Below are positions 43,192 to 47,209 of a stretch of 64,000 nt of DNA, piece by piece. Position 1 is the stretch's first letter, and each line of letters starts with the position of its first letter. A program made the position numbers and the translations under genes. The notes beneath the pieces are model-generated. The model ran no database searches. It saw nothing but the letters and a program-made list of their open reading frames with translations, and had not been told where the DNA came from. Source of the DNA: Capsulimonadaceae bacterium (GTDB lineage: Bacteria; Armatimonadota; Armatimonadia; Armatimonadales; Capsulimonadaceae). The stretch spans positions 3,584,001 to 3,648,000 of the forward strand of contig OZ244065.1 in assembly GCA_965215505.1 (NCBI GenBank), in the 5' to 3' direction.

Positions 43192-43821
43192 TTACCCCAC
43201 CCCCGCCCGGCACAGGGCACACAGCGGCATCGTTTCGGCCTCGGCGCCCTCAGACCCGCCGGGGGCGGCCAGCGCGCCGCAGCGGGCGCAGGGGGACCAG
43301 CCGCGGCGGCGTTTCCACTCGTCGGCGCGGGCGGCGTGGAGCATGACGGCGCGGATGCGCCCGCGCAGGGAGTCCTCGGTGATGGCGGCGAGGGCCGTTT
43401 CGATCCGCAGGCTCGCTTCCCTCGGGAGCGTGATGCGGGCCAGCTCCTGGGCGGTCGGGGTTGCCGGGGCGGCGGCGGGCGGCTTCTTCTTGTCGCGGGC
43501 CAGCCCGGAAGCCTTGAAGTGGATGTCGGTCAGGACGCGCCCGCCCAGCTTGCTGTTCAGGCGGCGCAGCATGTCCTCTTTGAGCAAAGTCAGCTCGTTG
43601 GCCCACACGCTGTTCTTGACGCGCACGAACAGGACGCCGTCGCGCACCGACTCGACCTGGGTGACGCCCGCCACCTGGGGGCCGACGACGCCGACCCAGT
43701 GGACTTTCGCCAGGTGGGGGCGGAGCATCTGCGCGATCTCCTGCGACTGCAAGAAGCCGCTGACGGCGCTTGACGCCGGTGCCATCCCGCGCGTCCTCCG
43801 GGGGGCTTGCGGATCTCTCAT
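43192..43821 (-). CDS. dciA: DciA/DUF721 family protein with C-terminal Zn ribbon
   Basis: WVGVVGPQVA...GVLFVRVKNSVWANEL; CxxC pairs; ATGA-coupled to recF. Confidence 0.78.
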   Translation of the reverse strand: MRDPQAPRRTRGMAPASSAVSGFLQSQEIAQMLRPHLAKVHWVGVVGPQVAGVTQVESVRDGVLFVRVKNSVWANELTLLKEDMLRRLNSKLGGRVLTDIHFKASGLARDKKKPPAAAPATPTAQELARITLPREASLRIETALAAITEDSLRGRIRAVMLHAARADEWKRRRGWSPCARCGALAAPGGSEGAEAETMPLCALCRAGVG

Positions 43822-44948
43822 TGCTTGGTGACCTCCCCGTCGGTGACGGAGTAGACGGCGGCGCGCTCCAGAACGGCGGGCGAGAAGGCGCGCAGGTTGG
43901 TACACGAGAGGAAGGTCTGCGACCCGGCCCGCGCGGTCAGGTCGAACAGCAGGCCGCGCCGGGCGTCGTCGAGGTCCGAAAGCACGTCGTCCAGCAGCAG
44001 CAGGGGCGGCTCGCCGACCAGCTCTTCTATCAGTTGCCGCTCGGCGAGTTTCAGGGACAGGGCGACGGTCCGCTGCTGGCCCTGCGACCCGAACAGGCGG
44101 CAGTCCTGGCCATTGACCAGGAAGGCGATGTCGTCGCGCTGCGGCCCGCGCACGGTGACGCCGCGCGCCGCCTCCTCCCCGGCGACGGAGGCGAGTTCTT
44201 CCAGGAACCGGCCCTGGATGGCGGACGCTTCGGTCAGGCCGTCAATCGGGAACGACGGCAGGTAGGTGACTTGCAGCTCGTCGCGCTGGTCGCTCAGGGT
44301 CCGGTGCGTCTCGGAGGCGAGCTGGGCCAGCCGTTCCAGGAACAGCCGGCGGCGCTCGACCAGCCGCGCCCCGTGCTGGGCCAGGCCCTCGTTCCAGGCC
44401 GGCAGGCTCTCGCGGGCCGCGCCGGAGATGCGCCCGTCGCGCAGGTCGCGCAGGAGCCGGTTGCGCTGCTCCAGAGTCTTGCGGTAGGACCCGAGGGCGA
44501 GGACGTAGCGCGGGGAGGTCTGGGCGATCTCCAGGTCCAGGAACCGGCGGCGGATCGCCGGCTCGCCCCGGATGATCTCCAGGTCGCCGCTGTCAAAGAG
44601 AACGGCGTTGAGCTGCCCGATGACCTCCGAAAGCCGCGTGTGCTTGACGCCGTTGATCCGGGCGGCCTTCTTCTCGGTCTGGGACAGCGTCATCTCGACC
44701 TCGATGTCGCTGGTCTTCTCCCGGACGACGTCGGCGGTGATCCGGGCGGCGGGCGTGCCGAATCGGACCAGCTCGACGTCCTTGCCGGCCCGCGACGACT
44801 TGCTGGTCGCCAGGATGTAGAGGCTTTCCAGCAGGTTGCTCTTGCCCTGGGCGTTGCGCCCGACAAAGATGTTCAGGCCCTCCCCCGGCTCGATGCGGAG
44901 CGTCCCGTAATTCCGAAAGTTGTCCAGTTTGAGCGATGTGACGTGCAT
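43818..44948 (-). CDS. recF: DNA replication/repair protein RecF
   Basis: NFRNY, GRNAQGKSN, GPQRDD, SQGQQR and LLDDVLSDLD motifs. Confidence 0.95.
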   Translation of the reverse strand: MHVTSLKLDNFRNYGTLRIEPGEGLNIFVGRNAQGKSNLLESLYILATSKSSRAGKDVELVRFGTPAARITADVVREKTSDIEVEMTLSQTEKKAARINGVKHTRLSEVIGQLNAVLFDSGDLEIIRGEPAIRRRFLDLEIAQTSPRYVLALGSYRKTLEQRNRLLRDLRDGRISGAARESLPAWNEGLAQHGARLVERRRLFLERLAQLASETHRTLSDQRDELQVTYLPSFPIDGLTEASAIQGRFLEELASVAGEEAARGVTVRGPQRDDIAFLVNGQDCRLFGSQGQQRTVALSLKLAERQLIEELVGEPPLLLLDDVLSDLDDARRGLLFDLTARAGSQTFLSCTNLRAFSPAVLERAAVYSVTDGEVTKQ

Positions 44949-44952
44949 GGCG

Positions 44953-45429
44953 CGTGACTCTTCTATTCTTAGCATAAGAGTCTAAATTCTTAGTAGTGAT
45001 AGTAGTAGGTGTGTGACTCACATGTGACTCAACGAATCCCGGCGGGGCCGATGTGCCCGGATCGCCCGGTTTTTGCCAGATTCCCGCGAGTCTCCCCAGG
45101 CGGTTTGACGACCTGGGGCTGGAATCGCTTAATTCCGAGAGTCACGCTGAGTCACAGTCGCCTGTGACTCAACTGTGACTCAACTGTGACTCAAGGCCGG
45201 ATTTTGTGACTCTGTGACTCTCGCGGATTCGTTAAGTCACAAAAGGTGGTCGTTGAGTCACACTATGTCACACTGAGTCACAGGTTGAGTCACAGGCTCT
45301 CGGCCCTAACCCCGGCGCTCGCGCCGGGGTTAGGGCCGAAACGACACGGCCTCGTGTTCTGTCACAGTGTCACACCTTCTGTCACACCTGTGACACAAGG
45401 CGCTTTTGTGTGACACAGCCTGTGACACT
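44953..45429. other. oriC: putative chromosomal replication origin (oriC) with non-canonical boxes
   Basis: directly downstream of dnaA; AT-rich tract, TAG-trio run at 44991-45008 and ~19 TGTGAC(T/A)C(A/T)-type repeats. Confidence 0.85.
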
Positions 45430-47209
45430 ACCCGCCCCGCTCGATCTCCTGCCGGATTCTGCCGATCAAGGACAGTATCTGCGGGTCCTCCTCGATCTCC
45501 TTCTGGAGACGCACGGCGGCGTGGACGATGGCCGTGTGACTCTTCAGGCCGAACGTCGCCGCAAGTGCGGACAGCGGCACGCCGCCCAGTTCTTTCGTCA
45601 GGTACATCGCCACCTGGCGCGCGAACCCGGCGTCGCCGTGCAAGCGCGTCGCCCGGTTGCTGCGCCCGCCGCCGGCCAGGATCTGGTCCCGCGAGACGCC
45701 CATCTGCGAGGCGACCGCGTCAATGATCCGGTCCACCGTCGGCCCGCCCGCGCTCATCGGCAGGCGCGGCGGCAGGACGAAGTCGCCATTGGTCGGCGGC
45801 GCGTGGTCCTCGGGATGAGCAGACGCCGACTCGCGTCCAAACCCTTCGCGCGGCGGCATCTGTTTGACGTAGTAGCTGCTCAGGACGTCTGAGGCGAGCT
45901 GCTTGGTGACGGGGCTGCGGGCCAGCGAGGCGTAGGCCATCAGCTTGATCAGGGCGCCCTCCAGGGAGCGGATGTTGCTCTGGATGAGGTTCGCCATGAA
46001 GGTGATCACGTCGTCGGGGATCGCCAGGTTCTCCAGAATGGCTTTGCGCTGGAGGATCGCCTCCCGCATCTCGAGTTCCGGCGGGGCGATGTCGGCGACC
46101 AGGCCGCACTCGAAGCGCGACTGGAGCCGCTCGTCCATCGCCTTCAGCTCGCGCGGCGAGCGGTCGCTGGTCAGGACGATCTGCTTGTTCATCTGGTGCA
46201 GGACGTTGAAGGTGTGGAAGAACTCTTCTTTGGTCTGCTCCTTGGAGGCCAGCATCTGGACATCATCCACCAGCCACACGTCCACGCTGCGGTAGGCCCG
46301 CCGGAAGTCCTCCATCTTCTTGTCGCGCAGGGCGGCCACATAGTGGTTCGTGAAGGTCTCCCCGCTGACGTAGGCCACGCGCGCCTGCGGCAGCATCAGG
46401 CGGATCTGGTGGCCGATGGCGTGAGCTAAATGAGTCTTTCCAAGACCTGGGCTGCCGTACAAGAACAGTGGATTATACGTCTTGCCGGGCGACTGCGCGA
46501 CGGCGACCGCGCCGGCCTGGGCGAGCCGGTTGGACTTGCCGACGACGAAGTTGTCGAAGGTGTAGCGCGGGTTGAGCGGCGAGGCGATCAGCTCATTGGT
46601 GAGCTGGCTGCGGACGCCGCGCCCGATGCTGCCGCCGCTGCCGCCCGCGTCCGACCCATCGGGGACCAGGGCGAGTTCGGACTGCCCGGCGGGGACCGGC
46701 AAGAGCGACTCGGGCGAGGGGGCGGGCCGGGCCAGCGGCGCGGCGGCCTGCTGCAACGGCAATGGCTGTTCGCCGAGGAGCGGCTGGACGTCGGGCGTCG
46801 AGATGACGAACCGGACCTGGACGGCGGGGATGTCCAGGAACTGCGCCAGGTGCAGGGCCAGGGTCTGGGCGTACTTGGCCTCGACGAAGGTCCGGGCGAA
46901 CGACGACGGGGCACCCAGGACGACGACCGGCAGGCTGCCGGCGGAGGGCGGGCTGTAGGAGAGCGGCTTGAGCGGGCGGAGCCAGTTGCCGATGGTCTGG
47001 GGGGTGGCCGACCCGGCCAGGGCGCGCAGGGTCCGCTCCCAGGCCTTGCGGAGCGCGGTCAGGCCCTCCTCCTCGCCCAGTTCCAGCTGCTGGTCCCGAA
47101 AAGACTGGTCTTTGAAAGACTGGTCTTTGAGGGGCTGGTCGGAGGCGTCGTCGCTGGGTGTCGGGTGGCTGCTCACGGGTTTCCTGGGAAGACAAGAGTG
47201 GGAAGACAA
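45428..47209 (-). CDS. dnaA: chromosomal replication initiator DnaA (start uncertain)
   Basis: YTFDNFVVGKSN, YNPLFLYGSPGLGKTHL, DDVQ, EEFFHTFN, RLQSRF, NIRSLEGAL and ARQVAMYL motifs. Confidence 0.95.
   Translation of the reverse strand: MSSHSCLPRKPVSSHPTPSDDASDQPLKDQSFKDQSFRDQQLELGEEEGLTALRKAWERTLRALAGSATPQTIGNWLRPLKPLSYSPPSAGSLPVVVLGAPSSFARTFVEAKYAQTLALHLAQFLDIPAVQVRFVISTPDVQPLLGEQPLPLQQAAAPLARPAPSPESLLPVPAGQSELALVPDGSDAGGSGGSIGRGVRSQLTNELIASPLNPRYTFDNFVVGKSNRLAQAGAVAVAQSPGKTYNPLFLYGSPGLGKTHLAHAIGHQIRLMLPQARVAYVSGETFTNHYVAALRDKKMEDFRRAYRSVDVWLVDDVQMLASKEQTKEEFFHTFNVLHQMNKQIVLTSDRSPRELKAMDERLQSRFECGLVADIAPPELEMREAILQRKAILENLAIPDDVITFMANLIQSNIRSLEGALIKLMAYASLARSPVTKQLASDVLSSYYVKQMPPREGFGRESASAHPEDHAPPTNGDFVLPPRLPMSAGGPTVDRIIDAVASQMGVSRDQILAGGGRSNRATRLHGDAGFARQVAMYLTKELGGVPLSALAATFGLKSHTAIVHAAVRLQKEIEEDPQILSLIGRIRQEIERGG

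Follow-up and report, generated by a model that had tools for sequence, protein, structure and literature searches.

The initiator DnaA and its nine-base box are among the most conserved protein-DNA pairs of bacteria, and lineage-specific dialects of the box that are paired with changes in the DnaA recognition helix are known from the Epsilonproteobacteria, Thermotoga and the mycobacteria. Because the known dialects come from isolated lineages, their residues are hard to connect with individual bases. Here we describe a dnaA locus from the Capsulimonadaceae, a family of soil bacteria in the phylum Armatimonadota, in which the DNA-binding domain of DnaA (domain IV) and the repeats of the adjacent dnaA-recF spacer both depart from their canonical forms. 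The locus lies in a 64,000-nucleotide stretch (the window, positions 3,584,001-3,648,000) of a genome consisting of one contig of 6,177,771 bp with 66.5% GC; five-digit coordinates below are window positions and longer ones are genome positions. On comparative evidence the spacer is very probably the chromosomal origin of replication, at which the single DnaA of the genome would read a re-coded box, TGWGTCACA, in place of TTWTCCACA, and co-evolution of the helix and the boxes is well supported by the sequences of relatives.

The DnaA box of Thermotoga maritima is reportedly a 12-mer that departs from the consensus. Its DnaA (2Z4R) departs from the consensus in domain IV as well (..FN-RSHPVVV.. 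in our alignment) and represents an isolated deep lineage without graded relatives, whereas the window's own family, designated f1 below, keeps intermediates within one family. For the Epsilonproteobacteria, the passages of PMC5043019 on domain IV pair boxes with a TTCAC core (H. pylori TCATTCACN) with the helix 5 changes K432, S435 and S438, on the basis of footprinting data. The mycobacterial consensus given there, YWRTCCACA, differs from the boxes described here in keeping T4 and C5, although domain IV of M. tuberculosis DnaA with box2 DNA (3PVP) is the best structural match to the window's domain IV [template modeling score (TM) 0.89, root-mean-square deviation (rmsd) 1.8 Å]. In the basal unwinding system of B. 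subtilis (8BTG), as outlined in part of PMC8287927, tandem boxes are followed by a GC-rich spacer of about 4 bp, at least three trios (3'-NAN-5', consensus 3'-GAT-5') and then AT-rich DNA, the criterion being one or two boxes no more than 16 bp from at least three trios. For E. coli, the relevant part of PMC5742627 has helix 434-451 reading TnCACA in the major groove and Arg399 reading TTA in the minor groove. The residue numbering and contact positions used below (P423, R432, the 433-434 dyad, T435, the hydrophobic residue at 438 and H439) are those of the passages of PMC5043019, and per-base contacts are taken as worded in review passages.

Boxes and layout of the dnaA-recF spacer

The word GWGTCACA occurs 16 times in the window, against an expectation of 1.88, and 15 of these occurrences lie between positions 45012 and 45428; the exact word TGAGTCACA is found nine times (0.16 expected in the window), in the spacer. 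Genome-wide, the 15 words within 410 bp of the spacer form the only large cluster of GWGTCACA, the next largest having three members. The canonical word TTATCCACA was not found in the spacer with up to one mismatch, nor is there a canonical cluster elsewhere, as the 71 TTWTNCACA words of the whole genome never fall two within 500 bp. The consensus of the boxes, [TA]G[AT]GTCACA, has G at positions 2 and 4 and is matched by the canonical TTWTNCACA at positions 6-9 only.

The dnaA-recF spacer (Table 1) is organized like the basal unwinding system: the two boxes and CACC are followed by six trios, of which five read GAT, and there is a stretch of 30% GC. It thus resembles B. subtilis in its tandem boxes, GC-rich 4-bp spacer, 3'-GAT-5' trios and AT-rich DNA, and differs from it in the sequence of the box, in the location of the origin between dnaA and recF and in having dnaN 0.6 Mb away. 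Between the distal array and the proximal tandem boxes are about 115 bp without boxes. The GC-rich hairpin that separates the two box modules, read from the sequence, is probably the dnaA terminator.

Table 1. Features of the dnaA region, in window positions.
Feature	Position	Strand	Remarks
dnaA	45428-47209	minus	593 aa from TTG, ORF translation and Pfam; true start may be slightly downstream
DnaA domain IV, DNA-binding helix-turn-helix domain	45431-45760	minus	AF2 model and Foldseek
Lengthened basic loop GGGRSNRATRLHGDAGFARQVAMYL	45599-45673	minus	residues 513-537; +7 residues
Helix 4 to helix 5 motif LSALAATFGLKSHTAIVHA	45518-45574	minus	residues 546-564; equivalent to E. coli 422-440
GTGTCACA / TGTGACA module	45349-45428		abuts dnaA stop codon; four full 8-mers and partial ones
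GC-rich hairpin	45302-45337	minus	between the two box modules
Distal array, nine GAGTCACA boxes	45149-45294		reverse nearest dnaA, rest mostly forward; three at 11-bp spacing
Two tandem TGAGTCACA boxes (TGAGTCACA-tg-TGAGTCACA)	45012-45031	minus	2 bp apart, then 4-bp spacer CACC
DnaA-trio-like repeat TAC TAC TAT CAC TAC TAA GAA	44987-45007	minus	complement 3'-GAT GAT GAT AGT GAT GAT-5'
AT-rich putative unwinding element	44958-45007	minus	30% GC over 50 bp; reaches almost to recF start
recF	43818-44948	minus	probable start MHVTSLKLDNFRNY
dciA (helicase operator family)	43192-43905	minus	PF05258, 66.9 bits

Two further observations concern the distribution of these words. The sixteenth GWGTCACA of the window lies inside dnaA itself, where the codons for residues K-S-H-T of the recognition helix (AAG AGT CAC ACG; 45535-45542, minus strand) spell the box AGAGTCACA, and a match with at most one mismatch is found at the equivalent place in several relatives. 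Small intergenic groups of GTGTCACA and TGTGACAC, partly as inverted pairs with a 5-bp gap, also occur at 3,023,010-3,023,046 (about 4.5 kb downstream of dnaN), 4,460,186-4,460,207 and 2,786,456-2,786,475; these could be DnaA-controlled promoters, titration sites or the operator of another protein.

On the minus strand of the window the gene order is dnaA, the 479-bp spacer, recF and a dciA-family gene. With dnaN at 3,017,858-3,018,505, the usual order dnaA-dnaN-recF is broken, and recF and dciA directly follow the origin.

Domain IV and the boxes across the family

The DnaA of the window has a complete architecture, consisting of the N-terminal domain I, the AAA+ domain III and the C-terminal helix-turn-helix domain IV, with Pfam matches that are all above cut-off (PF11638, DnaA_N, 27 bits; PF00308, Bac_DnaA, 228 bits; PF08299, Bac_DnaA_C, 42.4 bits against a cut-off of 31.5). 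Its domain III aligns to that of B. subtilis DnaA (PDB 8BTG) with an E-value of 2e-87, and the motifs for ATP binding and oligomerization, which a first-pass annotation made from the sequence had called intact, were all found [Walker A GSPGLGKTHL, Walker B WLVDDVQ, SRFECG with the box VII Arg, and NIRSLEGAL (sensor II)]. That annotation would have been refuted by a second, canonical dnaA elsewhere in the genome acting as the real initiator, and none exists in the 6.18-Mb single contig, where PF00308 and PF08299 each match one gene above cut-off. The other PF00308 match (19.2 bits, below cut-off) was rejected as a second initiator, as it lacks domain IV.

In many relatives, dnaA carries an in-frame insertion of about 370 residues at the Walker A region (L014:391-1500; dnaA of G001, G006, G009, G013, G014, G015, G017, G033, G041, G043 and G045). 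Its matches are to a LAGLIDADG homing-endonuclease domain and, less strongly, to a splicing domain of inteins, which makes it a probable intein; the window's own dnaA is without it.

Alignment to PDB 1J1V chain A places LPEIGDAFGGRDHTTVLHA of E. coli opposite LSALAATFGLKSHTAIVHA of the window, within the 45470-45680 interval that the first-pass annotation had singled out for this very substitution; the B. subtilis counterpart is LPKIGEEFGGRDHTTVIHA (alignment to 8BTG). Relative to E. coli, the changes are P423S, G431L, R432K, D433S, T436A, V437I and L438V, with H434, T435 and H439 kept, so that the canonical base-contact set (P423, R432, D433, H434, T435, L/M438, H439) reads S, K, S, H, T, V, H and is unchanged at three of seven positions. 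The reported lengthening of the basic loop, which lies in the same interval, is also borne out, the distance from the Gly to the ARQ motif being 20 residues, as opposed to 13 in the sister family (f2, same order), and the loop retains an Arg that aligns with R399 of E. coli. The system thus shares with that of E. coli the fold, residues 434, 435 and 439, the loop Arg, the CACA half of the box and A or T at position 3, and differs from it in G at box positions 2 and 4 and T at position 5, in the replacement of P423, G431, R432, D433 and T436, and in the longer loop.

The C-terminal 110 residues were modeled confidently by AF2 (pLDDT 88, with lower values at loop residues 29-43), and the model gave as its best Foldseek matches 3PVP and then 1J1V (TM 0.85), and ranks 1-10 were all DnaA chains; the predicted fold is that of the solved DnaA-DNA complexes. 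Drift or a dying gene as the cause of the altered helix was ruled out, as FGLKSHTA is invariant in 15 of 15 aligned sequences of the same genus (alignment A1).

For comparison with relatives (genera are given g-numbers, the window's being g1), 39 genomes containing ten genera of f1 were searched and dnaA regions were taken for nine genera, g11 having given no dnaA match; regions upstream of recF were added where the origin had moved away from dnaA. Public records matching the variant domain IV are labeled Armatimonadota, Armatimonadales or Capsulimonadaceae. Within g1, FGLKSHTA is present at all 16 loci that reach the helix (one more locus stops short of it). Canonical boxes in relatives with this helix had been named as a finding that would refute the altered pairing: those with the spacer on the contig carry clusters of GAGTCACA and/or GTGTCACA and neither TATCCACA nor TTATCCACA. 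In the set of 16 variant loci, too, no TATCCACA is left; the two sets of loci counted share several source genomes, so that the two counts are not independent.

The sister family presents the canonical state. All eight f2 loci that reach domain IV read G[GK-][RK]DH[TS][TS]V (e.g., GGRDHTTV) with a short loop, and f2 spacers have canonical boxes (12-15 TTATCCACA; TTTTCCACA in two genera); a Fimbriimonadia genome is likewise canonical. The proximal layout of f2, ...gagtTATCCACAgg...cccc TAC TAC TAC TAC TAA GAG and AT-rich DNA, is closely paralleled by that of the window, ...TGAGTCACAtgTGAGTCACAcacc TAC TAC TAT CAC TAC TAA GAA and AT-rich DNA. Common to both are TACTACTAC trios beside the proximal box, a cacc or cccc spacer and a distal array with reverse boxes and 11-bp spacing. 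As the origin layout is the same in f1 and f2, the variant boxes occupy the positions of the canonical DnaA boxes of the nearest relatives. The genera of f1 are compared in Table 2.

Table 2. Recognition helix, basic loop and box in genera of f1.
Genus	Helix	Loop	Box
g13	FGGVSHSAVSHA / FGNVDHSAISHA	+5	TCATTCACA, weak in second genome
g17	FGDISHSAISHA / FGDVSHSAVSHA	+5	CGATTCACA
g10	FGDVSHSAISHA	+5	xGATTCAC repeats, read from sequence; missed by automatic consensus
g15	FGCKNHSAIAHA	+1	[CG]GAGTCACA, 10-12 copies
g18	FGCKNHTAIAHA	short	AGAGTCACA beside trios, contig end
g16	FGCKNHTSVAQA / FGCKTHAAITHA	long	[TA]GAGTCACA
g12	FGLKSHTAIVHA	long	TGAGTCACA
g1	FGLKSHTAIVHA	long	TG[AT]GTCACA
g14	FGC[NK]NRTAVTHA (H434->R)	long	[TA]GAGTCACG, including three tandem proximal boxes

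When a maximum-likelihood tree is built from 39 rows of domain III, leaving domain IV aside, the outgroups and f2 fall outside f1, in which g17, g10 and g13 are basal, and all genera with a GTCAC core (g18, g15, g12, g16, g14 and g1) form one clade with 100/99 support, within which g14 is nested. The outgroups and f2 pair the canonical helix with TTWTCCACA; the basal f1 genera pair the helix ..[SD]HSA[IV]SHA with the TTCAC-core boxes CGATTCACA or TCATTCACA; the GTCAC-core clade pairs FG[CL]K[NS]H.. with xGAGTCACA; and in g14, H434->R is paired with the GTCACG box TGAGTCACG. The branches on which the box type changes are thus also those on which the helix type changes, and this holds at three nested levels. 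A profile of the variant domain IV (E<=1e-20) matched 24 of 401 genomes drawn from across the phylum, all in f1 (g1, g12, g14, g15, g16 and g18), with no match among these 401 in the basal f1 genera, f2 or other families.

The basal f1 genera also resemble the Epsilonproteobacteria, in that boxes with a TTCAC core (g13 TCATTCACA; g17 and g10 xGATTCACA) accompany S435 and S438, which is an independent parallel. Unlike in the Epsilonproteobacteria, the window's clade went on to a GTCAC core (T4->G), with 435 reverted to T and 438 changed to V or A, and the pairing is known here from sequence comparison. In g17 (L129, L130) and g13 (L131, L132) the origin is still upstream of recF and dnaA has moved elsewhere; the repeat beside their proximal box is ATG ATG ATG where the others have TAC TAC TAC, and a change in the strand or the sequence of the trio element may thus have occurred as well.

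Weighing the alternatives

Several observations weigh against the re-coded origin-initiator pair proposed here. The support is comparative throughout, and the changes amount to few nested events in one clade, with low statistical independence. The GC skew switches near the spacer, but its sign is the reverse of the one expected at an origin. Two g16 species differ at 435 (T/A) and 439 (Q/H) and both have GAGTCACA boxes; the boxes of g1 switch between GAG and GTG while the helix is constant; and the alignment of the basic loop is ambiguous, as R39, R36 or R33 of the model could match R399. The loss of P423 is seen already in basal genera whose boxes retain T at position 4. This last point limits the earlier proposal that P->S, D->S and T->A are specificity changes that co-evolved with the boxes: altered domain IV does accompany altered boxes across the relatives, but the loss of P423 preceded the change of T4, and T->A falls at E. 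coli position 436, which has no listed base contact, and not at the base-contacting T435. The lengthened loop is not needed for the GAGTCACA core, since g15 has a near-canonical loop together with 10-12 GAGTCACA boxes; it was rejected for the same reason as a necessary cause of G2 and G4 reading.

The specificity of DnaA may have been broadened and not switched, such that positions 2-5 are read loosely, the boxes drifted, canonical boxes are still bound and the pair is not orthogonal. This we consider unlikely, though deserving of weight. In its favor, position 5 is already N in the E. coli consensus TTWTNCACA as quoted in PMC5835720, and at position 3 the boxes of f2 accept A or T just as those described here do. 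Loose reading sits poorly, however, with variant boxes whose conservation is as sharp as that of canonical boxes: among 16 loci of g1, g12 and g16, the most frequent 9-mer is TGAGTCACA in 11 and AGAGTCACA in one; in the remaining four, which belong to g1, it is of the GTG form (TGTGACACA or TGTGACACT). From this sharp conservation and the complete lack of TATCCACA in the 16 variant loci, a positive reading of G2 and G4 is favored. The replacement H434->R with A9->G in g14 likewise looks like recognition gained, not lost.

A second alternative, which we regard as very unlikely, would put the true origin at the minimum of the GC skew, near 0/6.17 Mb, and make the cluster beside dnaA a datA-like locus close to the terminus that serves titration or autoregulation. 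The cumulative GC skew has its minimum at 6,173,469 and its maximum at 3,304,626, with a plateau at 3.45-3.9 Mb that includes dnaA at 3.629 Mb, and by the usual skew rule dnaA therefore sits near the terminus. The sign of the skew persists in plus-strand genes, minus-strand genes and uncalled DNA. When genes are split by strand, the coding strand is C-rich (about -0.03) and a replichore-linked component of +0.014 (0-3.30 Mb) and -0.022 (3.63-6.18 Mb) remains, so coding-strand composition was rejected as the whole explanation of the inverted skew.

Against an origin at the skew minimum, no repeated box-like word was found within 25 kb on either side of it, whereas the cluster beside dnaA has the trios and the AT-rich element expected of an unwinding site. 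Gene orientation also favors 3.63 Mb: the minus strand holds 57% of the coding length to the left of 3.30 Mb, and the plus strand holds 54% of it to the right of 3.63 Mb; forks starting at 3.63 Mb would travel in the direction of transcription of 39 of 60 tRNA genes (three more, in the 3.30-3.63 Mb gap, were not counted); and the single 16S gene of the rRNA operon (4.113 Mb, plus), the S10 operon (2.036 Mb, minus) and rpoB (2.047 Mb, minus) all point away from 3.63 Mb and would be head-on with an origin at 0. A weak indication comes from a dif-like pair at 0.617 Mb, roughly opposite 3.63 Mb. On balance we take the spacer to be the very probable origin and the GC skew of this genome to be inverted relative to it, the leading strands appearing C-rich even when genes are split by strand.

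The dif-like pair came from a search with short motifs, in which a strict pattern had no matches and a looser one gave the pair and a few others. It consists of two palindromes (TTTCCATAATGnnnATTATGTGACT) at 617,056 and 617,742, 686 bp apart; they could serve in resolution at the terminus, and an integrated element may have given rise to the second copy.

The least probable alternative is that the GWGTCACA repeats are sites of another protein (a dimeric regulator, nucleoid or partition protein), with DnaA binding something else or with low specificity: TGAGTCA is nearly palindromic, and inverted pairs like a dimer operator occur within the GTGTCACA module at the dnaA stop codon and, as GTGTCACA-N5-TGTGACAC, at the three intergenic places listed above (3,023,010; 4,460,186; 2,786,456), but the boxes stand exactly where f2 has canonical DnaA boxes beside conserved trios, form head-to-tail arrays with the 11-bp spacing of canonical arrays, retain the CACA half of the DnaA box and co-vary with the recognition helix at each of three nested nodes, and there is no alternative DnaA-box-like cluster in the genome.

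Proposed recognition and its meaning for the family

In the mechanism that we propose, domain IV retains the helix-turn-helix fold of DnaA with H434, T435 and H439, just as the box retains its 3' half, CACA. Helix 4 and the N terminus of the recognition helix are replaced (P423S, G431L, R432K, D433S), and the box is altered at positions 2, 4 and 5 (T->G, T->G, C->T). The sequences are consistent with the kept CACA half going with the kept residues and the altered positions going with the replaced 423 and 431-433. Given that Arg399 is assigned TTA and helix 434-451 TnCACA, the contacts that read G2 and G4 would have to differ here. DnaA on the two tandem proximal boxes would then seed an oligomer of ATP-DnaA along the adjacent 3'-GAT-5' trios; the stretch of 30% GC would be opened in this way, and helicase loading would follow with the aid of DciA. 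We infer the binding of DnaA to the variant boxes, the residues that set specificity and the steps of unwinding from these comparisons.

The series of genera may reflect a stepwise re-coding, TTWTCCACA -> xSATTCACA -> xGAGTCACA -> TGAGTCACG, each step with a matching helix change, among them the replacement of His434 by Arg that accompanies A->G at the ninth position of the box; we judge the chances of this full sequence of steps to be about even. The last step resembles the gain of an Arg-guanine contact.

In the literature searched, no replication paper was found for the GTCAC-core box word, alone or with DnaA, and searches combining the taxon with origin terms gave, beside unrelated work, a paper on the Fimbriimonas genome, which describes few canonical boxes and a jagged skew. 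The novelty lies in the G at the second and fourth positions of the box and, more than that, in the survival of a graded series in one family. The ancestral state is still found in the sister group, and the family itself holds two or more intermediate dialects and one further derived, all in an otherwise unchanged origin layout, which makes the long-open question of which domain IV residue reads which box position directly testable and offers a natural system for how DnaA reads DNA. Origin finders assume the canonical word and would miss origins of the f1 type. The f1 pairs are natural candidates for orthogonal initiator-origin pairs, and, if the stepwise re-coding is true, living genera of the family carry mutually incompatible initiator-origin pairs, from which the recognition rules of DnaA could be read and engineered.

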